DNA of 64,000 nucleotides from an uncultured bacterium (GTDB lineage Bacteria > Armatimonadota > Abditibacteriia > Abditibacteriales > Abditibacteriaceae): positions 1 through 64,000 of the forward strand of contig CAWJLW010000010.1 of assembly GCA_963843795.1 (NCBI GenBank), read 5' to 3'. Positions 1,569 through 63,460 of this stretch are shown here, piece by piece (position 1 is the stretch's first letter; each line of letters begins with the position of its first letter). The notes below the pieces were generated by a model. That model was not told the DNA's origin, did not search any database, and was given only the letters and a program-made list of their open reading frames with translations. The position numbers and the translations under genes are program-made.

Positions 1569-1817
1569 AGTGAAGGGTCGGACTAATTATTCGGAGAGCA
1601 AATTTACTCTCGTATTGGATAAAAAACGCTTTGTTTTGTCACCGCACGCGGTTTGGTTGAGCGTGTAAATGTCAATTTCACGCGTTTTCTTACTGCAAGT
1701 ACTTGCAGCACACTTTTAAGCTCGGTTTCGTCACGGCAAGTACTTGCAGCACACATTTTCAAGTTTAAATGCGGCAAATGTTTGGATTTTAGCTGTCAAG
1801 AAATTCAGTCAATTTGG

Positions 1818-3200
1818 TTATGGCGTGGCGGTTTTCTTCCCGAATTTCCAATAATCAATCTTGAAAAGCGGGCCCGTGGCTTCGCCTTTGAAAACGAGAT
1901 AGAGATCATGAGTGCCGGTGGCACCGGTGACCGCAGTGGTATTGATTTTCCACTTGCCGCCGGTATCTGATACCGGAAGGGTGCCGAGGAGCGGTCCTGT
2001 CTGGTTGTCGAGGTGCAATTCGATGGTTCCGCCTTTGGAATCTTCGTTTTTGAAATCGCAGGCAACCGAAGCTGTGAATTTGTCCGCACTCCCAATGCCG
2101 AAGTTCACGCCTCCTACCTTGATGTAGGCGCCGTCTCGATTCGGGTAGATGGCCAAACCACCCGCGTTACTGGGTTCCGATTTGACGCCTTCGCTCCAGG
2201 CAATAGTTTCCGCTTCGGTGCGGGCATAAGGATCGAGCGTGCCAAGTTGCGGAACTCCCGCATTGTCCCACCAGGGAAGCGTGGTGATGGTGCCGTCCGC
2301 GTTGTAATCAAATTTCGCCACACAGACCGAACGCCTTTCCCGATGTTTATCGGTCAGCGCCAAATTCAGCCGGTAATTGAAGCCGAAAACATAGGAGCTA
2401 CCTTTGTAATCAATGATTCCTGGATGGTTTCCAGAAGAGCGTCCATCCGGTTGCATGATATAGCCCTTGTAAGTCCAAGGGCCAGTGGCGCTGTCGCTCA
2501 TGGCATACCCAATGCCTTCGGGACAACAGGTGGAGGCATAAGCCATGTAGTAGTGGCCATTACGTTTGTAAAACCAGGGGCCTTCCTGATAATTAGTGGG
2601 CTTGGAATCTACCTTCACGATGTCACCCGAATAGGAAGTCATGTCCTTATTAAGCTTCACATACCAGAGGTTTGGGTTGCCCCAGTAAAGGTAGGCTTGT
2701 CCATCGCTGTCAACAAAAACCGTCGGGTCGATGTAACCGTTGGCTTTGTCGATTAACGGATGGCCCAGAGCGTCGGTGAATGGTCCCAGTGGGTTGTCGG
2801 CGACGGCAACCCCGATGACATTCTTGGGCCATTCGGGGACGCTGACCGGGGCATACAAGTAGAACTTGCCGTCGCGCTCGACGACCTGAGCTGCCCAGGC
2901 ATCGTTCTCCTGCACGGCCCAGGGAAAAGTCGCCAGCGAGGCAACTTTGCCACGATCCGTCCAGTTCACCATGTCCGTCGATGTGTAGCACATCCAATCG
3001 AGCATCTTAAAATTGGTCGCGTCATCTTCGTCGTGACCGGTGTAAAGATAGACAACGCCATTGTGCACCAAAGGCGCTGGATCGGCAGTGAAACTGGTCT
3101 GCACGACGGGATTATCAGCGCGAGCGAACGTCATCCCAATTGTTGTGGTCACCAAAACAACTAGCGTAGCCAGCACGGTTTTATTGAAGGCTTTTTTCAT
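1818..3200 (-). CDS. Secreted GH43 glycoside hydrolase with C-terminal CBM6
   Basis: Signal peptide; TADPAPLV, AWAAQV, YIDPTVFVDSDG, YQEGPW and GNHPGI motifs; CBM6 tail (TEAETIAWSEG..HDLYLVFKG..IDYWKF). Confidence 0.92.
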   Translation of the reverse strand: MKKAFNKTVLATLVVLVTTTIGMTFARADNPVVQTSFTADPAPLVHNGVVYLYTGHDEDDATNFKMLDWMCYTSTDMVNWTDRGKVASLATFPWAVQENDAWAAQVVERDGKFYLYAPVSVPEWPKNVIGVAVADNPLGPFTDALGHPLIDKANGYIDPTVFVDSDGQAYLYWGNPNLWYVKLNKDMTSYSGDIVKVDSKPTNYQEGPWFYKRNGHYYMAYASTCCPEGIGYAMSDSATGPWTYKGYIMQPDGRSSGNHPGIIDYKGSSYVFGFNYRLNLALTDKHRERRSVCVAKFDYNADGTITTLPWWDNAGVPQLGTLDPYARTEAETIAWSEGVKSEPSNAGGLAIYPNRDGAYIKVGGVNFGIGSADKFTASVACDFKNEDSKGGTIELHLDNQTGPLLGTLPVSDTGGKWKINTTAVTGATGTHDLYLVFKGEATGPLFKIDYWKFGKKTATP

Positions 3201-3333
3201 AGGAATTTCTTTGCGAGAGAAAGTTTTGGCTCCCGTCTGCTATGTTGTGAGCAGTCATTGAGTTTCTCTAGCGTTGAGTAATCCATTTATGAGGTATGAA
3301 TGGATTACTAACGCGCTCTGAAGGAAAGATGAG

Positions 3334-5742
3334 TTATTTGGGCGCTGAAACACTCACGCGTTTGCCCTGATAACGGATCACAGCGTCGGGTTTTTGGGTG
3401 AGAGGAATTCCCGCGCCGTGGCTTCCCGAAACCCAGACGATGTTGAAGGTGCGCGCTTTGACCATGCCGGAAAACTCACCGGAGCGCTTGCCGATTTCCA
3501 GAGTGCGTTTGGCGTTGTTCCAGGAAATCGGGATAGTGGCATATTGGCCTTTTTCATAATTGTAGCCGTCGCGTTCATCTTCGTAGAGCATGAACTTGCC
3601 GTCCGCTCCACGATAGATGCGAAGTTCAATCGGATCAGCCGGTTTCTCACTCGAATACTGAAGAAATGGCCCCATCGGAATGATCGAACCGGGCCGCACG
3701 AACAACGGCATCGTTTCTACCGGAGCCGCAGCCTCAACGCGCTGGCCTGCGGGGGAAGTCGCACCCGTCCAGAAGTTGAACCACGGAGCGCCCGTGGCCG
3801 GCAAATAGAGAGATTGAGTTGTTGCGCCAGCGGAAGTGACCGGGGTCGCCATGATCGCGGGGCCAAAAAGATACTGGTCGCCGATGTTCAGCGCTTGCGG
3901 GTCATTGGGGAAATCCATAACCAGGGGCCGCATGAAAGTGCTGCCATTGGAAGTCACTTGCCACGACACCGAGTAAAGATAAGGCAACAGGCGATAGCGC
4001 AAATCCAGATAGTTCCGCATAATGCCCTGCGTTTTCTCGTCGAAGCGATAGAATTCACGGCCCGTTCCCAAGCCCGAAGCGCTGTGAACGCGAAACATGG
4101 GACAGAAGGCGCTGAACTGGAACCAGCGAGAAAAGAACTCTTGAAATTGCGGGTCTTGAGGGTTGCCGTTGCCCGTAGCCCGGTTGCTGAAGAAGCCGCC
4201 CGTATCCGTGTTCCAATAGGGAATGCCGGAAAGCGAGAAGTTCAGTCCTGCCGGAACTTGGGCGCGAAAAACATCCCACGTCCCCTGAATGTCGCCCGAC
4301 CAGGTGATGGCGCTATTACGTTGTTGGCCAGCGAACGCAGAGCGGGTGAGGATGACAACGCGTTTTTTGTCGGTGGTGGCTCGCTGACCCTGATAAATGC
4401 CAGCCGAGTGCAGCAGCGGATAAGCGTTGTAAACCTCGTAGCCCGGCCCCATGCCAGTTTTGTAATTGCGGAAACCCATGCCGCCGATTTCCGGCTCAGG
4501 GGCATCCAGCCACCAACCATCCACGCCCTTGGTGAAGATTTCATTGCGGATTTGCTTCCAATAAGTTTGGCGGCCCTGAACGCTGAACGGATCATACCAT
4601 TGCCCTTGGCCGGGCGGAAAAGCATACGATGTAATCTGAGGGAACATGCCACCAACGGCATTGAGTTCCTTGCTGTTTTCGCTGCCAAGGTCGAATTTTG
4701 CCCACACAGAAATGAGACTGTGCAAGTTCATCTCATGCAGTTCCTTGAACATGCCTGCCGGGTCGGGATAGCGCGCCGGATCAAAGATGTGGGATCCCCA
4801 GGTGTCGTTGCCCGGCGGCCAGTATTGCCAGTCCTGAACTACTCCATCCACCGGAACCTTGAGTTCGCGTAATTTGCGAGCCACGCCAAGCAATTCCTCC
4901 TGAGAAGCGTAGCGTTCCTTGCATTGCCAGAAGCCCAACAACCACTCGGGCATCATCGGAGCCGCGCCGGTCAGGTGCCGGTAAGACTTCATGGCCGATT
5001 CGATTGTCCCGTCGCCATAACAAAAGTAGTAATCAATCGCTTTGCCAGCTTCCGACGACCAGCGCGTGACCTTGGCGTTGGCAGAGGCTTCGTTGGCTCC
5101 AGTCGAGGAAATTGTGGTCACGGCGGCATTGTCCCAGAGCAGCATGTAGCCCTTGCTCGAAGTGACGACCGGAATTCCAACACCCATGTTCGATTGGGCG
5201 AGTCTGACGGTGCCACTACTGCCTGCACTATAATTCCACGCACCTTTCTGGTGCTGGCCGAGGCCGTAAATACCTTCGTTTGCAGCCGTTTCAAAAGACT
5301 GGGCGCAGGAAGTGACGGCGGCACCAGCCACGGTCGCAGGCTGAATCGCGCGGCCGCGAGCCGACTCTTGGAGCAATACACGGTCAGATAAATCAAGAAA
5401 AGTCACAGCCTCCGTCTGCTTGTCAATCCTCACCTTAAGATGGGGCGCTACCAGAGTGAAAGCCTGAGCATTTTGCTGACGCTTCAACTTCACAGCAGCG
5501 GGACTGGCGACGACGGAGAGACTTTTGAGGACTGGCACTTCTGCGGCAGCCGCGTAGGTGACGCGGGCAATATCATCAGACCAGAACTGGATGCGTAACT
5601 TGCCGCCATCAACACTGAATTGAGCTCCGTTGGTCAGTTGTTTCGACGCGGTAACTGCGGCGCGCGATGGAGCAACCGCGATGGCCAGCACGCCAAGAAT
5701 CAAGGCGCAGGAAGTCTGTAGTTTCATAGTGATTGGTGTCAT
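3334..5742 (-). CDS. Secreted GH31 alpha-xylosidase-like glycoside hydrolase
   Basis: GFWQCKERY, VQDWQYW, GWWLDAPEPE (nucleophile), WSGD, YWNTDTGGF, RWFQFSAFCPMFRVH; C-terminal DUF5110-like region. Confidence 0.92.
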   Translation of the reverse strand: MTPITMKLQTSCALILGVLAIAVAPSRAAVTASKQLTNGAQFSVDGGKLRIQFWSDDIARVTYAAAAEVPVLKSLSVVASPAAVKLKRQQNAQAFTLVAPHLKVRIDKQTEAVTFLDLSDRVLLQESARGRAIQPATVAGAAVTSCAQSFETAANEGIYGLGQHQKGAWNYSAGSSGTVRLAQSNMGVGIPVVTSSKGYMLLWDNAAVTTISSTGANEASANAKVTRWSSEAGKAIDYYFCYGDGTIESAMKSYRHLTGAAPMMPEWLLGFWQCKERYASQEELLGVARKLRELKVPVDGVVQDWQYWPPGNDTWGSHIFDPARYPDPAGMFKELHEMNLHSLISVWAKFDLGSENSKELNAVGGMFPQITSYAFPPGQGQWYDPFSVQGRQTYWKQIRNEIFTKGVDGWWLDAPEPEIGGMGFRNYKTGMGPGYEVYNAYPLLHSAGIYQGQRATTDKKRVVILTRSAFAGQQRNSAITWSGDIQGTWDVFRAQVPAGLNFSLSGIPYWNTDTGGFFSNRATGNGNPQDPQFQEFFSRWFQFSAFCPMFRVHSASGLGTGREFYRFDEKTQGIMRNYLDLRYRLLPYLYSVSWQVTSNGSTFMRPLVMDFPNDPQALNIGDQYLFGPAIMATPVTSAGATTQSLYLPATGAPWFNFWTGATSPAGQRVEAAAPVETMPLFVRPGSIIPMGPFLQYSSEKPADPIELRIYRGADGKFMLYEDERDGYNYEKGQYATIPISWNNAKRTLEIGKRSGEFSGMVKARTFNIVWVSGSHGAGIPLTQKPDAVIRYQGKRVSVSAPK

Positions 5743-5755
5743 GAGAGTTTCTGGC

Positions 5756-7537
5756 TTATTTCCTCGCCGGGATGCTTACGCCTTCCACCGTTTGCGTGAT
5801 CGGTTTAATCGTGCCGTCGGGGTTGAAGTAAAGATATTCCAGGCTGACCGACCGCCGCACATCGCCGCGCGGCAGATTGTTGAGCGTCGTTGAGCCATCG
5901 TGGTAGAAGAAATACCACTGCTTTTTAAATTCGATAACCGCCGGATGAATCGTGAAGCCAGTTTTGGCGGGGCCGGTGAGGATACCGCGATAAGTCCACG
6001 GCCCGGTGATTTTAGGCGCGGTCGCGTAGGCGATCTGTTCGGGCCCTACGCCAGGTTCGTCACACGCGTAAACGTTGTAGTAGAGATTCTCGCGCTTGAA
6101 AAGCCATGGCCCTTCGCCGTAGTTGGTGAAGGACACTTTCTTAATCGGGCCGTCGATCTCGGTCATGTTGGGCTTGAGCTTGGCCATATAACAATCGCCA
6201 TTGCCCCACGCCAACCACGCAGTTTTATCATCGTCGAAGAAGACGGTTGGGTCAATATCGACGTTGTTTTTGCGAGAATCGTTGGTCATGTCGTCGGTGA
6301 TGAGCGGCGTGCCACGCGCATCTTTGAACGGCCCCGTTAGGCTGTCACTCACCGCCACCGCAATACTGTGGCCAGGCCCGTTATTGCGATCTACGGTCAC
6401 GTAAAAGTAGAATTTGCCGTCCTTTTGTACCACTTGAGCTGCCCACGCAGTTCCTGGGCGACCAAACGCAAAATCGGCTGGCTTCAGCACCGGACCGTGA
6501 GCCGTCCAGGTTTTCATATCCTTGGTCGAATAGCAGAGCCAGTCGGGCATATTAAAAAACTGCCCGACTGTGGCGACATCATGGCCCACATAAGCGTAAA
6601 CCGTGTCGCCCACCACCAGCGCCGCCGGGTCAGCGGTGAAAGTGTCGGTGAAGAACGGATTCTGGCCGGGTACACGAGGCAGAGCTTCCCCTGAATAAGC
6701 ACTTCGTCGATGCCGCCGTCATGCACAACGGTGGTGCTCGGCGAACCGGCAGGAAATCCACGCCCGATAGTCCATTGAGCCGCATTGCGCGGCAGGGCTT
6801 TTCCTTTAAAAGTAATCGACGATGGTGTGCCAGCAAAATACCTGCCCCGATGACTTCGCACTGATTAGCAGCGTGGATTGACCGCTCTGAGGATTGTAAA
6901 TTCCCTGAGCATGGATGTCATACCATTTGCCGGCGTTCGCAGCGCCCGGCGCGAGCGCACGATATGGTTTGCCGTCAGCGCCCTTGACTTCCGCATAAAA
7001 TTCCTGCTGCATCGAATCATATCCGATGGACAGGTCGGCGATGATCGAACCCCTCGCGCCTTCTTTGCACAGAAAAACCTGATCGTATTCGGGAGTGTTG
7101 GTCATTAGGCTGGTGTCGATTGACCAGCTTCTCTGCATATCGTAATAAGCCAGAGGTCGATCAGTTGAGGAGAAATATTCCCCCTTTTTCAAAGTGAGCG
7201 AGCGGGTGTTGGGCTTTCCGTCCACCTGGGCACGGGGAACGTTTTCAGAAAAAACGTTGGGGGAAGCTCTGCCGCCCCGGACTTCCAAGAGATTGCCCTT
7301 ACCGGAATCATCAGCCACGAACGGCTGAGGGTCGCTCGGTCTGCGATCATCGGAGGTGAGTGGTTGGCCCACCACAGACGGCGCGAGATCGCCCTTGAGA
7401 TTCTGCACTTGTTCGAATCGCCAGTGCGCAAGTACTTCGGCGGACGCGGCAGGGCCTCGCGCCAGCGCCGCAGTTATTAACGCTCCCATCAGGGCTGAAG
7501 TCAGGGATCGGGAAACGATGTTGTGGTGAGAGATCAT
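5756..7537 (-). CDS. Secreted LamG/concanavalin-like domain fused to GH43, split by about 2 frameshifts (about 6840 and 6695)
   Basis: 6806..7537 gives the signal peptide and 'VLAHWRFE' lectin-like start. The middle frame gives WTIGRG..GGIDEVLI. The last frame gives NPFFTDTFTADPAALVVGDTVY, leading into GH43 ORF 5756..6616 (WAAQV, IDPTVF, YGEGPW, TIHPAV). Confidence 0.8.
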
Positions 7538-7815
7538 AATCTTGCGGGTTACAAATCGGGCTTTTCGGTGGTTGAAATTTCGGTCAATTCATTGGTGGCT
7601 CAATCTCTCGATAGACAGATTATGAATACTGATCACGTTAGTGATCGTCCCTCGCAAAAAATTAAAAAGCGCAACGTGGCGTATTGAACAACAGCATCTG
7701 CTCACGCGCGTGAGCAACGAGAAGTAGAACAAGTATCAGTGGCAACCCCAACTTCGGCAAGTACTTGTGTTCTACTTCAGGGTCATTCAGTTCTTGCAAA
7801 GTCGTCTCGAAAGAG

Positions 7816-7859
7816 TGTCATTTCGACCGAAGTGAGAAACGAGCGGAGTGGAGAAAGCT
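7816..7859. repeat. Partial REP-like intergenic element (TGTCATTTCGACCGAAG..GAGCGGAGTGGAGAAA type)
   Basis: Resembles from memory the widespread GTCATTTCGAC..AGCGGAGTGGAGAAATC repeat class; single, apparently truncated copy next to IS ends. Confidence 0.4.
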
Positions 7860-7956
7860 TACCGTTACGCACACTCTGGACTTGCCCCGTTTTAGTGGAG
7901 AATGAGATAAGCTCCTTTTTATGAGGAGCGAGATGAGAATCGAACGCAAGCAATAC

Positions 7957-8642
7957 TGGAGTTCACCCGCTAAATGCGGACAATCAGTTAAGCAAGGATT
8001 GCTCATATTCGTGCGGGCTGAGATAGCCGAGTGCCGAATGTTTTCGCTTTCGATTGTAGAAGATTTCAATGTAGTAGAACAGGCTGGCCTTGGCCTGATC
8101 GTGTGTCAGATAGTCTTCTCGATGCACCTCCTCATTTTGCACACGATGCCAGCGGCCTCCAGCCGTCTCTGATAATCATCTGCCGGTTCAGCAGGTTCCG
8201 CGCGACAGGCAAAGCATGACCATAATCTATAGTCGCCACAAACCGGCGTGGCTTGCGCATCACCAGATCGTCTTCCTTCATCAGTTCAGCCACACGCTTC
8301 TGGCTGCACTTGATTCCAGTTTCTGCAAGTCTCGATGAATGCGGGGGCTGACGTAAAGCCCCATGCTCGCATGGAAAAGCTCGCCAATCTGAGTCACCAG
8401 AAGCTCCTTGTGCTGGGCACGCTGGCTTACGGGCCGCTTTTGCCATTGATAAAACGCGCTGGCACACACACCTTCTGCACGCGCAGCAGGACAGTCATGC
8501 GGAACTGACCTTCATGCTCTTGAATGAATTGATAACGTATCTCCCTCGTCGCCGGCCCGGCTACGAGAAGATGCTGATGGCTTTTTTAAGACCTGTGGTT
8601 CCAGGCTCTTATTTAACTGTCCACATTTGCGGGTGAGTTCCA
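7957..8642 (-). mobile_element. Internally deleted, degenerate IS3-family element with imperfect terminal inverted repeats
   Basis: Left end TGGAGTTCACCCGCTAAATGCGGACA (7957) matches the reverse complement of the right end, TGGAACTCACCCGCAAATGTGGACA (8642), giving TG..CA ends. It contains the OrfA tail LKKAISIFS* with an A6G slippery site and OrfB fragments (SAFYQWQKRP..YVSPRIHRDL; KRVAELMKEDDL..RRFVAT..HALPVARNLLNRQ). No DDE domain is present. Confidence 0.85.
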
Positions 8643-8831
8643 CATTGATAGAGTCCCTGAAAAGTGTGCCGGAATGGACAGCAAACTCTTTTGTGCAAAC
8701 GCGCACCTATCAAATGGCACGCAGTGTCAATGTTGGCACCTATGTAGGGCACGTAAATTTTTAACCGCCAACCAAAAGCGCCCTGCAAGTAATTTGCAGG
8801 TGTCACGCGAAACATCTAATTCAAGCGCAAC

Positions 8832-8866
8832 AAAAACGGCCCGCCGCTATTTGGCGGGCCGTTTTT
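8832..8866 (-). terminator. Intrinsic terminator downstream of the 8877..11732 gene (lacks the iterated palindrome)
   Basis: AAAAACGGCCCGCC-gctattt-GGCGGGCCGTTTTT. Confidence 0.8.
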
Positions 8867-8876
8867 GGATTTCGCT

Positions 8877-11732
8877 TTAGGGATAGCGCACCAAATAATA
8901 GGGTGTTTTGTCGCGGGCGCCGTCGATGTCAATAACGCCGTTGTGAACCTCGATTTGAGTGGTTGTCAGCTTGCCATCGTGGTCGAGGGCGAAAACTTGC
9001 GGTGTTCCCGTTCGGCGCAGTGTAAGACGCGCTTTAACCGGCTCCATCAGGATGGGGCCTTCACCACGTGCAAGCATCTCTGCGCCGTCGGGTGAAAATT
9101 TCTGGCCCGTGTTGCGCGCTCGCGCCAGCGCGACGATGAGCAGGTCTTTGGCGGTTGACAGCGTGCCCTGCGGTTCGCGCACCGTGAGATAAATCGCGCC
9201 GTAGCGGCTTTGCGGTTCGATGGTGACTTCGCCCAGAGCCAGTTTTTGATTCTGCGCAAAGCCGATTACCGCTTTTGTAGCGGGCGTGTTCATGGTGAAA
9301 AAGCCGCCGGTTGATGTGGTGGGGCTTTCCGTCCACGAAAGTTGCTTGGTGGCAGAGACCAGGGCGCCATTTTGTTCGTAGGGTGCCAGTGAAAAAACTG
9401 GCGTCGCTTCTTTTTTGGAGGTAAAATCCACGACACTGCGTACAACAGCTAAAGCACGGGCGGGCACTTTGGAGGAATCGAGTTCCTTGACATCGTAGCC
9501 TTGCACGACTTTGTCCTCGAAGCCGATTTCACCATCAAAAAGTGAGGGGAAATGGACATTGCGTTTGGCAACGACTGGCGATTCCTGCACGTCACCGCGC
9601 AAAATCTGACGCGCTACAGCTGGAAAAATGCCCAGCAGTTGCGGCGCGGTCACGTCCCACTCCGCACGGCCCAGACGGTTGGAAAAGGTGCCATCGTCGC
9701 CGTTCTGGAACAGATACGACGCGTCCCAACCCTGCAACCCCATGCCATAAGCGCCTAGAATCGCGGGGCCTTCCAAACCGTATTCGTTGGGGAAGGTGTG
9801 AATCCATTCCGACAGCATGAAAGGCCGGTCGGCGACTTGCTGCATTCCTGTCGAGAGCAACCCCGAGCCAGCACGAGAAATCATGGTAGCGTTGGCCGTG
9901 CCGCCGAAATAATTGTGACGGTCAATGGTGCCAATTTGCGCATCGGAATGCAGATTGGCGAAGTGACTGAAGCCGCGTCCCGCCTGCCAGTTGGAACTGG
10001 TCAGTTCGCCTTCATAACCGGCGTCGCGCATCGCTTTGCTGTAGCGGGCGTAGAACTCGTCCTGCAGCATCGTCAGAAATTGCAGTGTATCGAGCAAGCG
10101 CTGGCGACGCGGCTTTTGTGAGCCATTGAGTTGGTCGGGATCCCACAACCACGGATTGCCCAGCGGCAAAACGCTGTTGTTGGCCAGGCTTTCCCCACCC
10201 TCGACTGCCAGTTCTCCGGCCAGGGTGTTCATGCCGCCTTCGCCCCATGCGGCATCGAGCCCCTTTTGGTCTTTGTATTTGGCGCGCAGCCAATCACTGA
10301 AACGCTGGCCGACTTGTCGGCGCAACGTTGCACTTTTCTTGAGCGGATCCATCGAACTATAGAACAGAATGCTTTGCTCGTTGATGATTTCGATGAACGA
10401 AATGGCGGGATCCTGCGCGTAAGTCAATTTCGTATAGGGATTGCGGTGTTCCAGCAGATTTACGACCTGCGCAATTTGAACGGCTTGCAGTTCGGGCGAG
10501 TAATGGATTGCGCTATGCGGTGTTTCGATGCGCTCATCCTTGAACGCGCCAAACTCTTCGATCCAAGGCACCTGTGCTTTGTCTTTGGCGCCCAGCTTGA
10601 GCGAGCCGAAAGTCGCCGATAATTTGACAAAAATTCCCGCTTCTTTGAGCTTGGCAACTTGATAATCGAAGCGATCCAGCGCGGCGGCATCGAATTCAAC
10701 CGCGCTGTCGGGTCCCTGAATTCCGGCCCAGCCTGAACCATCAGCCCATTTGTGCAAACGCACCGCGTTGATGCCGTATTTGCGATAAAAATTGGCGCGC
10801 TTTTCAGCCAGTAGTTTTTCGGGAGCCGTCGCGCCGTAGCTCAAGTTGAGCCCCCACAATTTAATCGGCTTCTCGTTGTAAATCAATTGAGAGCCACGCC
10901 GCGAGATACGCCCGAATTGGCCGGCTGCGTTGTTATTCCAACTCTCCATGCCCAGTGCGCTCGCGGTAGTGTCGCCGGTCGCGCTCCAGGGATACCATGT
11001 ATTGAGGCCCGCTTCGTCGGGGATTTCACTCACGCCACCATACCACTGCACGGTCTCAGGCAACTCGACTTCAATGGCAACCGAACGCTCCTGTCCCGCT
11101 TTCAATTCTTTTTCGGCCAGAACGATGCGCGCTCCGCCGTCCGCTTGAATATTGATAGGCGGATCGAATTTCATGGTTGTGACTCGTTTAGTGGCATCAA
11201 GCATCCTGACGCTTTGCACCTTTTCGCCCAGGCTTTCGCGTCCAAAGGGCACTTTGACTGTTCTGGCGCCGGCAGCAGTTGTGGCTTGCGCCTCGCTGCC
11301 ATTAAAAGCTTCGCCTGGATTAAAGCCCACCGCGATCATGGTGAGTGGCGAATCGGTTTCGACATGGGCCGAATAGGTGATCTTCAGGGTGCGCGGGCCA
11401 GTTTTCTCAGCCCGAAAGGCGATTGCGACAGGCGCTTGCGTGCCGCCCAGCTTTCCCTTCATTTCGCCGGTCGCAACGCCGTCTCTCGCTATTGTTTGGC
11501 CTTCGAGTCCCGTCCAAGCCCAACCCGGGCCCCAGAGCATCCAGCCAAACCGCAAATACTCCTTTCCTTCGCGCGATAGCACGACCTCGGCCTGATTGTT
11601 GGCGTAAGCCGTGATTGGCGCGGCTGTTCTAGATGCAGAGCCTGTCGGTTTTTTGTCCTGTGCCTGCACGCAGCCTGTAGACCAACCGCAAGCCATCAAA
11701 GCAACGCCCATTACAACCTTTTTCCAAAACAT
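8877..11732 (-). CDS. Large secreted clan GH-A-like (GH5-related) glycoside hydrolase, family unassigned
   Basis: Start MFWKK after an AAGGAG RBS; signal peptide; IKLWGLN, GINAVRLH, HRNPYT..YAQDPAI..EIINE (acid/base NE), IDRHNYF, PFMLSEW (nucleophile). Confidence 0.75.
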   Translation of the reverse strand: MFWKKVVMGVALMACGWSTGCVQAQDKKPTGSASRTAAPITAYANNQAEVVLSREGKEYLRFGWMLWGPGWAWTGLEGQTIARDGVATGEMKGKLGGTQAPVAIAFRAEKTGPRTLKITYSAHVETDSPLTMIAVGFNPGEAFNGSEAQATTAAGARTVKVPFGRESLGEKVQSVRMLDATKRVTTMKFDPPINIQADGGARIVLAEKELKAGQERSVAIEVELPETVQWYGGVSEIPDEAGLNTWYPWSATGDTTASALGMESWNNNAAGQFGRISRRGSQLIYNEKPIKLWGLNLSYGATAPEKLLAEKRANFYRKYGINAVRLHKWADGSGWAGIQGPDSAVEFDAAALDRFDYQVAKLKEAGIFVKLSATFGSLKLGAKDKAQVPWIEEFGAFKDERIETPHSAIHYSPELQAVQIAQVVNLLEHRNPYTKLTYAQDPAISFIEIINEQSILFYSSMDPLKKSATLRRQVGQRFSDWLRAKYKDQKGLDAAWGEGGMNTLAGELAVEGGESLANNSVLPLGNPWLWDPDQLNGSQKPRRQRLLDTLQFLTMLQDEFYARYSKAMRDAGYEGELTSSNWQAGRGFSHFANLHSDAQIGTIDRHNYFGGTANATMISRAGSGLLSTGMQQVADRPFMLSEWIHTFPNEYGLEGPAILGAYGMGLQGWDASYLFQNGDDGTFSNRLGRAEWDVTAPQLLGIFPAVARQILRGDVQESPVVAKRNVHFPSLFDGEIGFEDKVVQGYDVKELDSSKVPARALAVVRSVVDFTSKKEATPVFSLAPYEQNGALVSATKQLSWTESPTTSTGGFFTMNTPATKAVIGFAQNQKLALGEVTIEPQSRYGAIYLTVREPQGTLSTAKDLLIVALARARNTGQKFSPDGAEMLARGEGPILMEPVKARLTLRRTGTPQVFALDHDGKLTTTQIEVHNGVIDIDGARDKTPYYLVRYP

Positions 11733-11799
11733 GAAAATCTCCTTTCCTGCATCCGGTTTCCAAAGCATCATTGCACGTCTTGCAGCGACCAGGAAACTC

Positions 11800-13854: not shown

Positions 13855-13926
13855 AGCGTTCTATTATATGGTTGATTCCACTCAATAAATCACGCATTGT
13901 CATGCATTATCGAAACAAAAATCGGT

Positions 13927-15207: not shown

Positions 15208-15385
15208 GAAAAGTGTTTAGGGGTAAATAAAAAGTCTTGGCGCGATGACAAATTCAACAACCTTAGTATCTAATAGTTGTCAATCGAACACGTTCCAAAT
15301 CTAAGGTTATGGGTTCGCGGACATCTGCAAGTACTTGCACTCGCTTGCACGTGTCGCAACAGGAACGCCTTAAAGGGAATCCTTT

Positions 15386-16257: not shown

Positions 16258-16299
16258 AACAAAAGCGCCTCTGCAAGTACTTGCAGAGGCGCTTTTGTT
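16258..16299. terminator. 42-bp perfect palindrome centred on GCAAGTACTTGC; probable bidirectional terminator between convergent genes
   Basis: AACAAAAGCGCCTCTGCAAGTACTTGCAGAGGCGCTTTTGTT. Confidence 0.85.
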
Positions 16300-40345: not shown

Positions 40346-40400
40346 AAGACGCTGCAAGTACTTGCCACACAGTTTCAATTGCCGATGGAACCAGGAGATT

Positions 40401-44263: not shown

Positions 44264-44305
44264 CTTAGTTCAACGCTGCAAGTACTTGCAGTGTGAGTTA
44301 TGAGC

Positions 44306-48329: not shown

Positions 48330-48348
48330 ATCGCAATTCAATCTAGCA

Positions 48349-48382
48349 AAACGGGCGCTGCAAGTACTTGCAGCGCCCGTTT
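48349..48382. terminator. 34-bp perfect palindrome centred on the iterated motif between convergent genes
   Basis: AAACGGGCGCTGCAAGTACTTGCAGCGCCCGTTT. Confidence 0.8.
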
Positions 48383-48388
48383 GGTGTT

Positions 48389-49017: not shown

Positions 49018-49053
49018 AAAAAACGCGTGGCAAGTACTTGCCACGCGTTTTTT
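49018..49053. repeat. 36-bp perfect palindrome centred on the iterated motif, in a divergent intergenic region
   Basis: AAAAAACGCGTGGCAAGTACTTGCCACGCGTTTTTT. Confidence 0.9.
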
Positions 49054-50304: not shown

Positions 50305-50338
50305 AAAAGCGTGCTGCAAGTACTTGCAGCACGCTTTT
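50305..50338. terminator. 34-bp perfect palindrome centred on the iterated motif between convergent genes
   Basis: AAAAGCGTGCTGCAAGTACTTGCAGCACGCTTTT(TT). Confidence 0.85.
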
Positions 50339-53653: not shown

Positions 53654-54742
53654 ATGAAAAAAGCTGCGGACAGCCTTCTGAACGATTCCTCTCCAACAGT
53701 CGATGATTTGCAGGTTGAATATCTTTCGCGTGCCGCCACCTTGCGCGATGTGGCCGCGCGCGCGGGCGTGGGGCAAGCGACGGCTTCCTATGTGTTGAAT
53801 AACAAGCCCAAATCTATCGGCGCCGAAACGCGCGAGCGCGTGTGGCGCGCGGCGCGCGACATTGGCTACCGCCCGAATATGGCCGCGCGCTCGTTGATGA
53901 CGCGCCAAACTCACCTCGTTGCGCTCTGGATTCCCAACGTCGCGACCGCTTTTGCCGCGCGCGTCATCGGCGAAATTCAAAATCAAGCGCGCGCTCATAA
54001 CTACGAAGTGATGATCTGCGACACTCAGCGCGCCGAACGCAGCAACGCCGATCAAAGCGACGAAGCCTCGGTTGTGCTTCAGTTGCCGCAGTGGAATGTC
54101 GATGGCATTATCGCATTTTTCGGCTCCAGTTCGCGCGTCATCGAACGCGATAACACACACGGAGCCCTCGTTCCAACCGTCAGTATGGGCGCGCATTCCA
54201 TCAAAAGCACCGATTTCGTGAGTTTGGATTTGCATTCCGCATCGTGTCAGGCGCTGCAATGGCTTTTGACACAGCGCAAGCGTGTCGGATTTTTGGTGCC
54301 TCGCGCCGCCGATTTTCCCGGCGATGAGCGCCGCGAAGCCTACGTTCAAACCCTGAACGCGCACAACGTCGAACCGGTTTTCATCCACATGAGCGACAAT
54401 TCGCGCGCGGCAGCTTTCTATGCAATGCGCAAGTACTTGCAGGCGCATTCGTCCGCCAATTTGCCCATCGATGCGCTTTTTTGCTACAACGATTACGCCG
54501 CTATCGGCGCCGGTCGCGCCCTACGCGAGGCCAATCTCCACATTCCCGACGACGTGTTAATCGTCGGTTGTGACGATATCGAAGACGGCGATTATCTCGA
54601 ATGGCCGCTGCACACTATCGCTCTGCCCATTCCGCAAATGTGCGCAACCGCATGGCAATTTTTTCAAACCCGCTTCGAACAACCAAAACGCTCGCTACAG
54701 GTCAAAAATTTTGTCGGCGAACTCAAAATAAAATCGATTTGA
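53654..54742 (+). CDS. LacI family transcriptional regulator
   Basis: ATLRDVAARAGVGQATASYVLN, GYRPN..ARSL, ALFCYND, IPDDVLIVGCDD. Confidence 0.93.
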   Translation: MKKAADSLLNDSSPTVDDLQVEYLSRAATLRDVAARAGVGQATASYVLNNKPKSIGAETRERVWRAARDIGYRPNMAARSLMTRQTHLVALWIPNVATAFAARVIGEIQNQARAHNYEVMICDTQRAERSNADQSDEASVVLQLPQWNVDGIIAFFGSSSRVIERDNTHGALVPTVSMGAHSIKSTDFVSLDLHSASCQALQWLLTQRKRVGFLVPRAADFPGDERREAYVQTLNAHNVEPVFIHMSDNSRAAAFYAMRKYLQAHSSANLPIDALFCYNDYAAIGAGRALREANLHIPDDVLIVGCDDIEDGDYLEWPLHTIALPIPQMCATAWQFFQTRFEQPKRSLQVKNFVGELKIKSI

Positions 54743-55645: not shown

Positions 55646-55685
55646 CGAAGTTGCGCGCTGCAAGTACTTGCAGCGCGCAACTTCG
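55646..55685. terminator. 40-bp perfect palindrome centred on the iterated motif after the PhyH gene (no T tract)
   Basis: CGAAGTTGCGCGCTGCAAGTACTTGCAGCGCGCAACTTCG. Confidence 0.6.
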
Positions 55686-56662: not shown

Positions 56663-56768
56663 CGCGAAATTACCAAAAATACTTCTACTGGCAGCCACTG
56701 CCTGACTATTAATTTTAATCGTTCACGCGCAGCAAGTACTTGCCGCGCAACTTTGAGCTTCAACTATT

Positions 56769-59360
56769 ATGATTTCTCGAAAACAGATGTTCCTGCGCGT
56801 TGGCTTGGGATTGGCTTTTGGATTTTGCACGCACGGTGCGCAAGCCGCGCCCAACGATTTTTCTCAAATCGCCAAGAATAACGGCGCTTCGGTGCAGTTA
56901 AATTTCGATGGCGTTCAAACTTTTGATGGTCGCAATCAAATGGCGCCGCTCGACCGCGAAATGGGTGCGGCGTTAGGCCAATTCTCGCTGGAATTTGTGT
57001 TCCAAACTTCCAGCACTCAGCGGTCGACGCTGCTGGGCGTTTTCGATGAAGGCCAGACGCAAGGTCTATCGATTGATTTGAACACCGATGAAAACGACAA
57101 TTATTCGCCCGGAATCACGCGGTTTTTCCTGCGCGATTTGATCGGAGACAAGCAAAGTTCTCTTGCGGCCACTGTGGCCAACGAAGATTTCGATTTATAT
57201 GATGGCAAGCCACATCACTTGGTGTTTGTTTACGATGGCAACGCGGCCAGCCAACGCGAAGCGCTGCAAATTTGGGTCGATGGCGCACCGGCTTCGCTTT
57301 CGTTTGCAAGTAATTTTCGGGGCGTGCCGCACCGTTTTCAAGCCTTTAGTTTCGACCCGACTTTGGCCGCGCGCAATGCGCGTGGCACACTGGGCAATTT
57401 CGCCAATATCACGCTCGATGAATTCGCGTTCACCCCGCGAAACTTGAACGCACAAACAATTGTCGCGCACACGCGCGCAGCTGACATCGCGCCGGTTGTG
57501 CGCGCGCTGCCGAAGTTGGACGCGCTGCGTTCAATGAGCGCGAGCGAGAAAAGCGCGTTCGATAAACGGTCGCGCGAATTTTTGAATTTCGTGGTTAGAA
57601 ATCGCGAAAATCCGATGGAAACCGTATGGGGCAAATACCGCAATTTCGATGTTTACGCGCTGGCGTGTCTGGCGCTCGGCGGTCACGATGTCGATGCGAA
57701 GCGGTTATTGAACGAAACGCTGGACATGATCGACCATAATTTCGCGGTCGAGCGCGCGCCGCGCGGCGACAAGTGGCACTTGGCCGATTTCGCGATGGAG
57801 CCTTTGCTGCGCGCTTATTTTCAGTTTCATTCAACGCATTTTCCCGATGATGAAGTGTGGCAACGCTTGGAAAAAACCGCGCAGAACTTTCTGTTCCATT
57901 ATGGCGATCTCAGCGAAAATCATAATTTACTGCATCTTTCGCTGCGCTATTTGAGCGGGCAAAGATGGCCCGCTGCGAAGTTTCACGATGGGCGTTTGGG
58001 CCAAATTCACAAAGCCGAAGCCGACGCGCAAATTCGGCAGTGGATGAACGATTGGGTGCGGCGCGGCAGCGGCGAGTGGGGCGCGGATATTTATTACAAC
58101 GTCAATCTGCTCGCCTTGCTGAACTTGTACGATTTTTCGGAAGACGCTTCGATGCGCGTGGCCGCGCAGGGCGTGTTGGATTTATTCGCCCTTGACGAAG
58201 CGCTGGATTCATATGGGGGCGCGGCAGTTGGTGCGGCACGGCGCGGTTACGCGGTGTATCGCATGGATTTAAAACAAAGCCCGTCGCGGCCCTTGCAATA
58301 TTTGTGGTTCGATGCGCCGACTCAAACTCCGCCGTTCAATTTGAATTTCATCGGCGGCGCGCTTCAGGCAGCGACCAGCAAGTACTTGCCACCGCCCGCG
58401 ATTCGCTGGATTGCCAATTCGCGTATCGAGCAAGAGAATAGCACCACGCACGCGCGCGGTCTGTGGCCGGTGGCCAACCTCGATTCCATTGGCAAACATA
58501 CGTTACGCCTGAATGATGTGATGCAATCGACGATGAATTCGCCCGGCGGCGGCGGTCGTTATACCGAACACGTCTGGCAAATTACAATGGATGAGACCGC
58601 GTTGGTTTTCGCCAATCATCCCACGCTGACCGCCAATACTTCATTTGGTGCCGCCAAACGCGAACTGCCGCGCATTTTGGAGATGTATGAAAAACCACGT
58701 CCGACTGCTCCGCCCCTAACGGAAGGCGCGTGGTATTGGCTGTACGCGAATATGCCGCCCGGCCATCAGGGCGATGTGCGCCCCGGTTACTGGCAAGGCA
58801 ATATGGTCGGCCCGCGCTCGTTTGGAAGCGGCGCGCTTTCATTTCTGATTTTCAATATTCCACCTGAAAACGCGCTGCCGTTTGCTCACATTTACCTTCC
58901 GCGCCGAGAATTCGACGAAGTGCGCGAAATCGGTAATTGGATTTATCTAAGAAAAGCCACTGGCTACGCCGCACTATGGATTCCGACGGGTTACCGCGAA
59001 ACGCAAAACGGTGTGTGGGCGCTCAGCGAAATCAAAATCAATGGTGCGCAATCGGCCCTGTTTTCGTTTGTCAGCGACCAAGAACGCGACGGCAATTTCG
59101 ATGCTTTTATCGCGCGCTGCAAGTACTTGCAGCCGCAATGGGATGCGACAAATCTGACACTTTCCGCTTTGAGCCATCGAAATGGCAAACGTTTGAGCGT
59201 TTCCTATCCAAACGGGCCCACTCAAGACGAGAGAATCATTAATACGCGCGGCCCGCGTTTCCAAACGCTGTGGGGTTCGATGAATCTAGGCACGCGCACC
59301 CTACACCTGAAAACACCCGCGGGTGATTATTCTTTGGATTTGCGCGCTGCTTTGCGCTGA
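56769..59360 (+). CDS. Secreted LamG-like domain plus an alpha-helical/beta-sandwich (heparinase II/III-like architecture) protein of unknown family
   Basis: Signal peptide; FSLEFVF, DGKPHHLVFVYDG, IWVDG, LDEFAF (LamG); SENHNLL, GEWGADIYY, LLNLYDF. Confidence 0.65.
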   Translation: MISRKQMFLRVGLGLAFGFCTHGAQAAPNDFSQIAKNNGASVQLNFDGVQTFDGRNQMAPLDREMGAALGQFSLEFVFQTSSTQRSTLLGVFDEGQTQGLSIDLNTDENDNYSPGITRFFLRDLIGDKQSSLAATVANEDFDLYDGKPHHLVFVYDGNAASQREALQIWVDGAPASLSFASNFRGVPHRFQAFSFDPTLAARNARGTLGNFANITLDEFAFTPRNLNAQTIVAHTRAADIAPVVRALPKLDALRSMSASEKSAFDKRSREFLNFVVRNRENPMETVWGKYRNFDVYALACLALGGHDVDAKRLLNETLDMIDHNFAVERAPRGDKWHLADFAMEPLLRAYFQFHSTHFPDDEVWQRLEKTAQNFLFHYGDLSENHNLLHLSLRYLSGQRWPAAKFHDGRLGQIHKAEADAQIRQWMNDWVRRGSGEWGADIYYNVNLLALLNLYDFSEDASMRVAAQGVLDLFALDEALDSYGGAAVGAARRGYAVYRMDLKQSPSRPLQYLWFDAPTQTPPFNLNFIGGALQAATSKYLPPPAIRWIANSRIEQENSTTHARGLWPVANLDSIGKHTLRLNDVMQSTMNSPGGGGRYTEHVWQITMDETALVFANHPTLTANTSFGAAKRELPRILEMYEKPRPTAPPLTEGAWYWLYANMPPGHQGDVRPGYWQGNMVGPRSFGSGALSFLIFNIPPENALPFAHIYLPRREFDEVREIGNWIYLRKATGYAALWIPTGYRETQNGVWALSEIKINGAQSALFSFVSDQERDGNFDAFIARCKYLQPQWDATNLTLSALSHRNGKRLSVSYPNGPTQDERIINTRGPRFQTLWGSMNLGTRTLHLKTPAGDYSLDLRAALR

Positions 59361-59411
59361 AATTGGGCGGCAAGTACTTGCTGGGCACGATGGCAAACCA
59401 TATCATTCACG

Positions 59412-61629
59412 ATGAAATTCACTCTGCTCCTTGTTGCCTTTATTTTGTGCTGCTCAGCGACGCAGGCCGCCGACATTCAACTTTCGTCGCCTACTGCGAC
59501 ATTAAATTTGGTACGCGCTCCCAATCATCAATTGTTCGTGCGTCTACAAACTGGCGCGACGCGTTTCGAGCAAAGCGCGCCTCTGGCGATTGAAGTTGTC
59601 GAGAAAAGCGCCGCGACAAGATGGCTTTACGGCGCTTACAATCAAGTTAAAACGAAAACAGGTGTTCTGGATTGCCGTGGCGAATTGCGCTCAATCAACG
59701 GCACGCGTTTTATTTTCCGCGATCTTTACACGCGCGCTGGCGATGGATTCCAATTGCAGCGCCGAGTAGAAATTGCGACACCGAATACGCAAGATGTTGG
59801 CTTCTCCTCGCGCTTTAGTCTCGCGTGGACGACACCAAAAACGGCGCACGATTGCGATGTTTTGATGCCGGGCGCTTGGTATCGCCAAAACCAGAACGTG
59901 CCGCCGCATGCGTTCGCGGCCAATAGCGATGCGCAAAGTTTGCTGCTGCGTGGTGACCGCTTGGGTTTGCCGCTGGTAATGGCGCGCGATACCCAGAGCG
60001 GAATCACACTGGAATTGGAGCGCGTCGGGGGCATTCCAACAACCATCGCACAGGATGCGGGAAATCAACGTTTGATTGATGCCCGCATCCAAATCGGTGC
60101 GCTGGGTTTGCTCAATGTGGGCAATCTGCAAGTCGCGTTTTCGTTTCCCGGCACCGAAGATGAACGCGCGGTTTTGGGCGCAGATACGCCTCCGCCTCGA
60201 CGTTTTGCGCCGCGCTCGCATCCGGTTGAAATCGGCATCGCCCATAATTATACGCTGTATTTTGAAGCGCGCCCCACAGCTAGTTTCGCGGCTGCAGTAG
60301 AACAAACTACCAAAACGGCCCTTGCGCGCGCGCGTCCGCCCCTACTTCGCGCCGATTTGCAGCAGGTTTATCGCGCTGAAATGGATTTGCTGGACGCGGT
60401 GATTCGACCTTACAATGGAACGGTCAGCGTGCCCTTTCAAGTCGTGGTGCCGACGGGAGAAATCAAAGACACCTCGATGCAAATGGGCTTCGTCGGCATG
60501 GCACTGCCATGCGCAGCCCTTTTGCTGCGCGATGGATTCCTGACAAAAAATCAAAGCGCTATCGAACGTGCGATGAGAGTCGTTGACTTTTGGGTGCAAC
60601 AAGCCCCAACCGCTTCCGGAGTACCTGAAAAATTGGGCCGATTTTCCGGCGCCCGGCCAAGTAACATTTCGCAATTATCCGACGCATTTGCGCGTGGTTT
60701 CCGATGGCATGCAGGGCGCGTTGCAAGCGTGGGAAACCGCGCGGCGCCATAGTCTCGACAAGCCACGATGGTTGCAGTTCGCCCGCAATTTTGGCGATTT
60801 TCTCGTCGCGCACCAAAACGCCGATGGCTCGTGGTTTGGCTCGTGGAATTTCGATGGCACGCCTCAGCAAAAATTTACCAACGCCAGCGCGCATCCGATT
60901 GCGTTTTTGGTCGATTTATCGAAAGCGACCGGTGATACGAAGTATCAAAACGCTGCTCTGCGCGCCGGTGAATTTTGCTTGCGCACTATCAACGACGCGT
61001 ATTCATATGTTGGAGGCACGCCGGATAATCCCAACGTCACCGATAAAGAAGCGGGCGTGATGGCCGTTAGCGCCTTTTTGGCTTTGTATGATGCCAGCGG
61101 CGACCGCAAGTACTTGCAGGCGGCAAAGCAGGCGGCGATTTTCTGTGAGACGTGGGTTTACTGGCGCCATTTACCAATTCCGACTGGCACCGAGAAACAG
61201 GTTTTTCCTGCGGGTCGTAATACGACTGGCATCAGTTTGATTTCGACCGGCCATTCGGGCGCCGACAATTTCATGGCCATCGCGCCTTTCTGGTGGTATC
61301 GCATTTACCTCGCCAGCGGCGACAGACACTTTCTCGCAACCGCGCGTTTGCTGTTGCACGACACCAAACAAGTGATCGATTGGGACGGGAAATTAAATTA
61401 CAAGTATCGCGGCCTGATGCCCGAAGCGATGGGCCTGGCAACTCATCGCGGACAAGGCGTTGCCGGTTGGCTGCCGTGGCTTTCCTTTGTTGCTTGTGAG
61501 CCTTTAGTGCAATTGCAAGAAACTTTTGGTGCAATGGAAATTGAGCAAATCGAGCGCTTGCCGCTGCAAACGCGACACTCATTAAATGTGAAGTTTGGGC
61601 AAACGCGCGGGTTTGCCCAGGCAAAATAA
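59412..61629 (+). CDS. Secreted protein with a C-terminal (alpha/alpha)-barrel glycosidase-like domain; one frameshift near 60629
   Basis: Signal peptide; ORFs 59412..60752 and 60583..61629 join at SGVP/KNWADF; helical hairpin repeats ATGDTKYQNAA, ASGDRKYLQAA, ASGDRHFLATA. Confidence 0.7.
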
Positions 61630-61845
61630 AACCCGAACTTCTGCGCTCGCACTGCAAGTACTTGCAGTGTAGTAAACGCGAAATTTGAGAGCGCGGCGCA
61701 TTCGGTGCTCATCGTTTTACAATTCTAAAAAACCAGTTTTGCAGATTTTCGCACTAAAAACGTTCTTAAAATTACTAAACAGCAGAGCTAGAGAGACTCA
61801 TGATTATCATTTCAGTACCACAACAAAAAAATTATTTAAAAATGA

Positions 61846-63108: not shown

Positions 63109-63303
63109 ATGCATATCAAAGTTTGGAAGCGCTTGTTTCAACTTTCAATTGCCACGATCGCAGCAATTTTAGTGACAGGTTGTTCAAGTTCTCAGGAAGC
63201 TCCAGTCAATGCTGAGACTTCTGCTGGCAATTCAAATAATGTCAGCTTGCAACAGGAGAAGGGCGCAGCACCTGATCCAAAGATGCGCGAACTCAAAGAT
63301 TAA
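63109..63303 (+). CDS. Small lipoprotein downstream of the DUF1559 gene
   Basis: GAGAGGA RBS, hydrophobic stretch, VTGC lipobox. Confidence 0.7.
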   Translation: MHIKVWKRLFQLSIATIAAILVTGCSSSQEAPVNAETSAGNSNNVSLQQEKGAAPDPKMRELKD

Positions 63304-63420
63304 TTACGCAGTGTTCTTAAGAGACTTGCACATAATACGAAATACCCGGCTTGGATTGAAGTCGGGTGTTGTAGTGTGTCACGATTCACAATTTCGTTAA
63401 CTCACACTCACGTCAAAAAT

Positions 63421-63460
63421 CCAATAAGCCTCCTGCAAGTACTTGCAGGAGGCTTATTGG
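63421..63460. terminator. 40-bp perfect palindrome centred on the iterated motif between convergent genes
   Basis: CCAATAAGCCTCCTGCAAGTACTTGCAGGAGGCTTATTGG flanked by AAAAT and TTTT. Confidence 0.85.

Follow-up and report, generated by a model that had tools for sequence, protein, structure and literature searches.

The palindrome in the window

The window analyzed here, a 64-kb stretch that opens contig C10 of G000 (4.30 Mb, 11 contigs), the genome of a soil bacterium of the Abditibacteriaceae, is marked throughout by copies of the 12-bp palindrome GCAAGTACTTGC. An exact recount gives 39 of them, spanning positions 1695-63446, the number that had been counted by eye in a preliminary description of the window, and none is present in any of 100 dinucleotide shuffles. 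The approximately ten variants mentioned there are six one-change and five two-change sites. That most copies are extended holds narrowly (20 of the 39 reach CTGCAAGTACTTGCAG and 23 a 14-mer), and the division into 25 intergenic and 14 genic copies becomes 27 and 12, a split that shifts with the choice of gene starts and is affected by the heuristic gene caller, which overlooked at least one open reading frame (ORF, 60583-61629). The 12-mer is real, but it is not the single motif for which it was taken: it is one dialect of a set of iterated words that are real, selected, family-wide, and undescribed in the literature searched.

The strand of every copy is given as '.'. Within coding sequences (CDS) it lies at 12947-12958 (PKD/nucleoside hydrolase gene), 20049-20060 (SLT gene), 24283-24294 (peptidase M28 gene), 27434-27445, 27979-27990, 28245-28256 and 28893-28904 (a beta-helix gene in both cases), 42024-42035 (GH16 gene), 54429-54440 (LacI-family gene), 58378-58389, and 59119-59130. 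The copy at 27317-27328 is at a CDS 3' end, that at 61106-61117 is probably within the overlooked ORF, and that at 45845-45856 marks a divergent gene boundary within the longest TTG-start ORF. Between genes, the copies at 1695-1706 and 1736-1747 form a helically phased pair with a spacing of 41 bp; 15327-15338, 23450-23461, 38273-38284, and 56732-56743 are divergent, and 25165-25176, 44278-44289, and 59370-59381 tandem intergenic sites. Further intergenic copies are found at 30797-30808, at 30884-30895 (with a short extended stem), at 31927-31938 between the rrf2 and ATP sulfurylase genes (the congener's own dialect being close by), at 37251-37262 (paired with the 37315 copy, 64 bp), and at 40354-40365 between the kinase and response regulator genes.

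The remaining copies are parts of hairpins. Two bidirectional terminator-type hairpins, at 16258-16299 (-32 kcal/mol) and 40878-40913 (-29 kcal/mol), have the word at their apex (16273-16284 and 40890-40901, respectively). Convergent terminator-type hairpins are found at 48348-48383 (12-mer at 48360-48371), at 50305-50338 (12-mer at 50316-50327), and around 35301-35312, and a terminator-type hairpin around 37315-37326. The copies at 55660-55671 and 63435-63446 are in convergent hairpins, those at 33168-33179 (3' of the ATP sulfurylase gene) and 61654-61665 in intergenic hairpins, and that at 49030-49041 in a hairpin with A/T tails in a divergent region. Four window hairpins fold with -24 to -32 kcal/mol (z of -6 to -9.5), whereas two coding examples, one of them the copy at 12947-12958, show no such folding (z of -0.4 and -2.0, respectively).

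The genes of the window (210-16237, 25211-27274, 40933-42795) are ordinary, and none resembles a reader of the word, in agreement with the preliminary description, which saw no cognate protein here. They include glycoside hydrolases (GH43, GH31, GH16, and GH51-like), a MiaB-like radical SAM protein, ATP sulfurylase, a two-component pair, a LacI regulator, and a DUF1559 prepilin. The named relatives of a window protein belong to Abditibacteriaceae/Abditibacterium (77-83% identity), which suggests that the genome is a member of this family.

Abundance and strictness in the genome

The comparison of 12-mer counts with a Markov background, proposed in the preliminary description, was made for the whole genome. 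G000 contains 2,567 copies of GCAAGTACTTGC (overlaps counted), distributed over all 11 contigs, against an expectation of 0.09-1.2 (Markov orders 2-5, cores masked), and the word is by far the top 12-bp palindrome, the runner-up having 33 copies. Mismatched forms are few: 506 sites differ from the word by one change and 371 by two, and sites with three changes occur about as often as an equal-frequency estimate predicts by chance. The hexamer AGTACT is flanked by both TGC arms in 2,567 cases, by one arm in 342, and by none in 332. The word acts as an all-or-none unit at about one copy per gene. An orders-of-magnitude excess, about 1 site per kb, and a steep fall to mismatched forms are the abundance features of the DNA uptake sequences (DUS) and uptake signal sequences (USS), and G000 shows all of them. 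Along the 3.6-Mb contig C6 the density is flat (6.2-6.7 per 10 kb), with no gradient between origin and terminus (ori/ter).

An assembly artefact, named at the outset as a possible refutation, is contradicted by independent metagenome contigs and by a separate GTDB congener, which share the core. In other phyla, at least 48 GTDB contig stretches with the word show single chance-like matches, except for one relative. This is L401, a 2.9-kb contig in a metagenome-assembled genome labelled Gemmatimonadaceae, with three copies and proteins 73-82% identical to those of G000; no enrichment is seen elsewhere in that genome, so that L401 is probably mis-binned. The sole public run for strain variation is near-identical and adds no information, and the listing contains no RNA holder. 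No description of GCAAGTACTTGC was found in the literature searched, which excluded subscription papers and supplements, where a k-mer survey table could list the words; nor were palindromes of Abditibacteria or DNA uptake sequences of Armatimonadota described there, and the listed matches to the four dialect words that were compared by title were all unrelated.

Coding copies and terminators

With heuristic gene calls (3,368 genes), the 2,563 non-overlapping sites of G000 divide into 759 coding, 1,234 tandem-intergenic, 286 convergent, 261 divergent, and 18 start-overlapping sites, with 5 at contig ends. About 30% are coding and 70% intergenic, with densities of 2.1 per 10 kb in CDS and 19-43 between genes. 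The coding copies are biased to one frame (499/145/115), and the proteome reflects it: the peptide QVLA occurs 569 times (38 expected; 507 motif-coded), and 60% of QVL are written with motif codons, against 0.4% expected, the enrichment being 2.6-fold for QVL and 15-fold for QVLA. An excess beyond codon and amino-acid expectation, of the type known from the highly iterated palindrome HIP1, is found both in coding and non-coding DNA. Alignment of 47 sites to word-poor relatives shows 27% amino-acid identity at the motif codons, compared with 60% gene-wide; a gap lies within five residues at 14 of the 47, so that some are in loose regions. In a 64-kb alignment of G000 with G001, coding sites align to congener genes with no motif-sized insertion, and 5 of 28 G001 dialect sites fall on a G000 site. 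Because of the insertion-free alignment, the QVLA excess, and the lowered identity, we conclude that the word is made by substitution, even at a cost to the protein, and acts at the DNA level. The earlier proposal of a HIP1/DUS-like cis-element, spread over the whole genome and not mobile, is supported.

In convergent intergenic regions, long hairpins flanked by A and T tails carry the word at their apex. Terminator-like structures account for 201 of the 286 convergent sites and 664 of 2,558 sites overall in G000. This co-option is also seen in G006; it is rare in G009, G012, G015, and G001, where long stems are found at only 2-6% of the sites.

Spacing and word-free islands

The sites are under-dispersed, with a Fano factor of 0.52 against 0.86 ± 0.04 in a layout-preserving null, and 81% of 2-kb fragments hold a site (73% by Poisson). 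For genes with both flanks of at least 30 bp, the more flanks are occupied (0/1/2), the lower is the coding density: 2.09/1.44/0.34 per 10 kb in genes <800 bp, 2.93/1.52/0.77 at 800-1400 bp, and 2.44/1.96/1.23 at 1400-2500 bp. The copies saturate locally at 1-2 kb.

HIP1 is described with a periodicity of tens of kb; in G000, spacing was examined up to 20 kb. Five word-free gaps are longer than 12 kb. Judged from genes identified by eye, they correspond to islands rich in insertion sequences, a restriction island next to a tRNA, a cluster for an injection system, a region resembling a plasmid, and a GC-rich end with a type IV secretion system (T4SS). The word is missing from recently acquired islands. 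The cluster (C3:2600-27300) is an intact-looking extracellular contractile injection system without the word; the T4SS-bearing end (C6:3599000-3623414, GC 0.62-0.72), also without it, is perhaps foreign or chimeric.

Dialects across the family

The exact 12-mer occurs 0-3 times in each of 40 GTDB relatives. The form AAGTACTT, with 2,965 copies in G000 and 2,725 in G001, reaches at most 110 in 400 other genomes of the phylum, and AGTACT has 2,813-4,733 copies in 6 of the 31 class genomes and 1-48 in 15 others. Dialect words are found in ten of the 27 family genomes, each at 0.6-1.2 per kb, 11 of the 27 lying outside the de novo word scan. The G001 dialect is CAAAGTACTTTG, that of G009, G015, and G019 is TCGAGTACTCGA, and that of G012 is CGAGTACTCG; among the family words, this one is also written (T)CGAGTACTCG(A). 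Metagenome contigs (60-70% GC, ~70% identity) read (G)CAAGTACTTG(C) at ~10 per 10 kb, a density biased upward by picking loci by the motif. In G006 the word is the asymmetric AGTACGGTCGA, with 2,981 copies (1,473/1,508 by strand) against 0-11 in the other 30 genomes; it is single or forms inverted terminator pairs closed by T runs, and no strand bias is seen in five 20-kb stretches.

Seven of the ten dialect genomes share the AGTAC core. The other three, G007, G016, and G018, iterate the asymmetric, GTAC-free CAGCCACG (2,676-3,503 copies, against 131-529 in the other 24), which may be part of the same system. Samples of these genomes show CAGCCACG(S)CG at ~0.6-0.7 per kb, mostly single and with a mild, inconsistent strand bias; no terminator pairs were found in G007. 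Such a word is absent from samples of 40-400 kb from G002, G003, G004, G005, G014, and G017, in which the repeats seen were a CRISPR repeat and one resembling repetitive extragenic palindromes (REP). The CRISPR-like repeat has ~155 copies in 400 kb of G002. On a PilT tree (11 rows) the word-rich G012 groups with the word-poor G017 and G003 (97/95), and therefore, by this one gene, there has been more than one gain or loss of the words.

Methyltransferase, putative partner nuclease, and competence genes

G000 has one N6/N4 methyltransferase (C6:2517365-2518135), a beta-class DPPY enzyme with no adjoining nuclease, whose nearest solved structure is the distant M.RsrI (E 1.6e-36). No C5 methyltransferase was found in G000 or G001. 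Of the 27 family genomes, 20 have an intact orthologue (56-75%) and 2 a broken one, and none was found in the other 5; the enzyme is retained in all seven genomes with a GTAC word, its specificity being predicted only. By eye, the variable region looks conserved between word-rich and word-poor genomes. As a family-wide enzyme, it was rejected as the cause of the words by its presence alone. In four other AAGTACTT-poor Armatimonadota the methyltransferase was not found, so that the avoidance seen in them has no bearing on the assignment of GTAC.

A nuclease-like partner gene (~225 aa) is confined, among 401 genomes of the phylum, to 13 of this family. It is convergent with and adjoins the methyltransferase gene in G020 and G017 and is 1.5 kb away in G003, so that the two are linked in 3 of the 13; in G008 the partner gene lies between comEA and a second pilT. 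Searches for the partner were negative in all seven genomes with a GTAC word (G001 being searched by a single protein only), against 13 positives among the other 20. Its model (pLDDT, the predicted local distance difference test, 93) matches restriction/MutH nucleases in all of the top nine folds, with Z of only 5.5-7.1, the best being NhoI, MutH, Eco15I, DpnI, and PvuII (Z 7.1-6.2). Pfam gave no match, nor did Foldseek at E ≤ 0.001. Most copies begin, by eye, with a signal-peptide-like segment, which the G020 copy lacks. The model is suggestive, not conclusive, of a type II restriction endonuclease with the PD-(D/E)xK fold; an exported enzyme of this kind would itself be unusual. Among named relatives, only distant matches or hypothetical proteins, and no plasmid match, were available to fix the specificity of either protein. 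The partner family L452-L464 (e.g. L455:1450-2133) has close relatives in Opitutaceae and distant ones in cyanophages and giant viruses.

From samples of 34-400 kb (1 Mb for G000), GTAC is the most depleted tetramer in the pooled nuclease-bearing DNA of g5 and g2, with observed/expected ratios (O/E) of 0.04 and 0.07, respectively; in word-rich genomes, with the word masked, it is 0.44-0.77. The majority of the 13 partner-bearing relatives avoid GTAC. From this we infer GTAC as the predicted specificity of the methyltransferase and partner. It is also possible, and simpler, that lineages with a GTAC cutter are just unable to use a GTAC word. CTAG is strongly avoided family-wide (O/E 0.03-0.5), as are many 6-bp palindromes.

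G000 carries ComEC, ComEA, DprA, secretins, PilM, and a pilB-T-C-D-pilin locus. In its assembly several core genes, among them pilC (C6:397725-398699) and gnd (C6:2271395-2272898), are split by apparent frameshifts like those of an unpolished long-read assembly, and gene absences or splits in G000 are to be read with caution. Candidate readers were sought in several ways. In the pilus, pilU, and comEA loci, the genomes differ neither in gene presence or absence nor in charge; a dead or diverged partner nuclease was not found in six-frame translations of G000 with a 13- or 103-sequence profile (best E 0.5); the small proteins with a high codon adaptation index (CAI) yielded no candidate, the bias being too weak; and no DNA-binding homologue is shared between G000 and the word-rich phage G402 described below.

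Relation to known systems

A strict word at ~1/kb, rewriting of peptides, use in terminators, absence from foreign DNA, dialects, and phased A/T flanks have each been described for DUS or USS (PMC3630211, PMC3458573, PMC7811141, PMC2817400, PMC1939737, bioRxiv 2025.10.24.684340). Local saturation is, in our view, to be expected from the fragment model in PMC7811141. The likeness to the DUS of Neisseriaceae lies in a strict word of 10-12 bp with species dialects around a short core (AGTAC in seven genomes here, CTG in DUS), in frame-biased coding copies, and in terminator use, the inverted pairs of G006 copying the DUS terminator layout (PMC3630211, bioRxiv 2025.10.24.684340). The differences are the phylum, the palindromic nature of most dialects, one dialect with no core, and the lack of a ComP-like reader among the proteins searched. 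With the USS of Pasteurellaceae, the words share ~1 site/kb, a steep drop from exact to one-change forms, enriched encoded peptides, absence from foreign genes, and A/T tracts that recall the phased T-tracts of PMC3458573 (also PMC7811141, PMC2817400, PMC1939737); compared with USS, the tracts here are on both sides and run longer, the peptide enrichment is larger, and the core is palindromic.

The cyanobacterial HIP1 and its alternates are likewise hyper-abundant palindromes in and between genes, with an orphan methyltransferase in the same genomes and lineage alternates (PMC4390886, PMC5861425, PMC13756078). A role of HIP1 in transformation has been proposed (PMC4390886, PMC13756078, bioRxiv 2024.09.10.611283) and one in chromosome architecture argued (PMC5861425). 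HIP1 is a GC-rich octamer (GCGATCGC or alternates) of cyanobacteria, whereas the present words are of another sequence and phylum, longer, AT-centred, changing between congeners, 70% intergenic, and terminator-tied; they include asymmetric words, and a lost partner nuclease is visible in relatives. The methylated RAATTY of Campylobacter jejuni is also a palindromic signal with an orphan methyltransferase, but, as cited in bioRxiv 2024.09.10.611283, it is short, degenerate, and present every 60 bp, unlike a strict 10-12-bp word every 1-1.7 kb for which methylation is predicted only. Chi and the FtsK-orienting sequences (KOPS) are asymmetric and replichore-skewed, whereas the G000 word is palindromic and the G006 word strand-balanced in five stretches. 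In general, the words would work like DUS/USS and resemble HIP1, but do not belong to either by the features compared, palindromy in the first case, sequence and phylum in the second.

Interpretation

Between the uptake receptor and the nucleoid protein suggested in the preliminary description, we now favour the former, with the latter as the main rival: GCAAGTACTTGC is probably the version, in this species, of a signal for the uptake of self DNA that resembles DUS and USS and is spread by uptake drive. A candidate reader in the type IV pilus/ComEA/ComEC route would prefer word-bearing fragments; repeated uptake and recombination would fix new copies (molecular drive) until most fragments of 1-3 kb hold one. 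Some copies are co-opted as terminator apices. For the seven GTAC dialects we suggest, more tentatively, that the central GTAC may be methylated by the conserved beta-class adenine methyltransferase. Loss of the partner would have left this enzyme an orphan and freed GTAC as a signal core, as with Campylobacter RAATTY and HIP1.

A number of observations weigh against these proposals. Competence genes are also present in word-poor relatives and do not discriminate; no reader stands out in the pilus locus, which is the same in four word-rich, one CAGCCACG, and five word-poor genomes, and no signature in charge is seen in three pilins. Known DUS and USS words are non-palindromic, whereas the G000 word is a perfect palindrome and only the G006 and CAGCCACG words are asymmetric. 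The flank effect on coding density is gone in genes longer than 2.5 kb, and under a conditional null the coding sites show no mutual repulsion, for which we have no explanation. As regards methylation, the methyltransferase is intact in 13 of 20 genomes with no GTAC word; G003 and G017 hold the methyltransferase/partner pair, yet have GTAC O/E of 0.37-0.44, and G007, G002, and G004, without the partner, have 0.16-0.45; the GTAC-free CAGCCACG is found both in G016 (no methyltransferase found) and in G018 (methyltransferase and partner). The family comparisons involve kin that are not independent, and G001, G019, and G015 are 63-89% complete. Copies also occur in phage DNA: the AT-rich G402 (68 kb, 38-41% GC) has 29 AAGTACTT, ~18 of them extended to TGCAAGTACTTGCA-like forms, often at gene boundaries just 5' of ribosome-binding sites. 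A second phage, G403 (101 kb), has ~4-5 copies; both are viral records with no assigned host (L340-L343 and L344-L349, respectively). G402 carries queuosine/deazaguanine-pathway-like genes.

Helical phasing and phage G402 are the strongest evidence against uptake. Close pairs of sites in G000 are phased at 10.5 bp, with peaks at 20-21, 30, 39-41, 51, and 62-63 bp (Rayleigh p 0.0005, n=135), and three control words show no pair periodicity; the phasing is shown in G000 only, other samples having given 3 and 8 close pairs. A/T trinucleotides peak at ~14.5, 26, 35.5, 46, and 56 bp from the dyad, alike at coding and non-hairpin intergenic sites, and the swing at the second turn is 7-20%, compared with ~±8% for the genome-wide 11-bp autocorrelation. 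The first peak (14-15 bp from the dyad) is present in three lineages, G000, G001, and the metagenome relatives. Phasing over 5-6 turns is more than uptake needs. A genome-wide 11-bp A-tract periodicity is seen in G000 and G002.

The pair phasing and the A/T swing beyond the genome rhythm are what would be expected of a nucleoid organizer, an abundant cytoplasmic homodimer that would bend or bridge DNA every 1-2 kb, with selection keeping about one site per loop. The need for both arms, the even spacing (in G000 and in G009, with a coefficient of variation of 0.50), the copies at gene starts of phage G402, and the architectural role proposed for HIP1 (PMC5861425) point the same way. We nevertheless regard it as unlikely: whole words are swapped between species, including asymmetric and unrelated ones, a change difficult to reconcile with the one-by-one re-selection of thousands of sites; the pair phasing is shown for G000 only, there is no ori/ter gradient, and the high-CAI small proteins, with their weak codon bias, contain no candidate. 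The nucleoid sites of SlmA, MatP, and Noc number tens and are restricted to ori or ter regions, unlike 2,567 sites with a flat density along C6, and a nucleoid reader would bind far more strict sites than any known to us.

A signal acting after uptake, Chi-like or through methyl-directed conversion as in Elhai's HIP1 model, would bias the strand kept in recombination or repair and would also yield drive and saturation. It would suit the orphan methyltransferase of all seven GTAC-word genomes and the finding that unmethylated homologous HIP1 raises integration (bioRxiv 2024.09.10.611283). However, the apparently conserved variable region contrasts with words that differ over 10-12 bp, no C5 methyltransferase was found in G000, and the G006 word has, unlike Chi, no strand bias in the five stretches; this explanation is improbable, and a methyltransferase-coupled repair bias, one of the factors proposed earlier, is unlikely if acting alone. 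Slightly less probable still is a mark of self DNA, shielding the chromosome against a defence nuclease that would destroy DNA with no word within 1-2 kb. The word-free foreign islands, the even coverage, a word-rich phage that could be a mimic, and the avoidance of many palindromes, which implies heavy restriction pressure, would agree with it, but resident stretches of 15-33 kb survive with no site, no such defence system was identified, and the phage has no assigned host.

The least probable, and already largely refuted, explanation is a REP-like or other short mobile repeat, or merely a favoured terminator loop, to which the intergenic palindromic hairpins, the 70% of sites between genes, and the quarter in terminator-like hairpins would lend themselves, but against which stand 759 coding copies (30%) made by substitution, the scarcity of long stems in G009, G012, G015, and G001, and, ruling out the REP-type nuclease suggested earlier, the lack of an insertion footprint and of the GTAG/GGAG foot, with the only REP-associated tyrosine transposase (RAYT) of G000 serving its own, unrelated GTAG-type REPs. 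This RAYT-like Y1 transposase (C6:751650-752460) lies between its GTAG REP pairs and follows a broken type IIG-like restriction gene.

DNA uptake that depends on sequence is an established trait of two proteobacterial families and of Campylobacter, and HIP1 has, to our knowledge, lacked an explanation for 30 years. The Abditibacteriaceae bring together species rich and poor in words, dialects both palindromic and asymmetric, and a predicted restriction-modification pair that is intact, split, or orphaned, and the origin and switching of such words thereby become testable by comparison. The words are near-perfect species barcodes for binning, as the flagging of L401 illustrates, and candidate tags for the transformation of members of a phylum that has hardly been touched. 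The uptake-signal reading can be carried further, to a doubtful proposal: an independently evolved, dialect-forming uptake code with a methylated restriction-site core, in which an exported GTAC cutter once would have barred unmethylated DNA and the lineages that lost it would have reused the methylated word, flanked differently in each species, as a positive password for 'self'. If true, the family represents both extremes of a restriction-to-uptake-signal switch, linking HIP1, RAATTY, and DUS in one clade.

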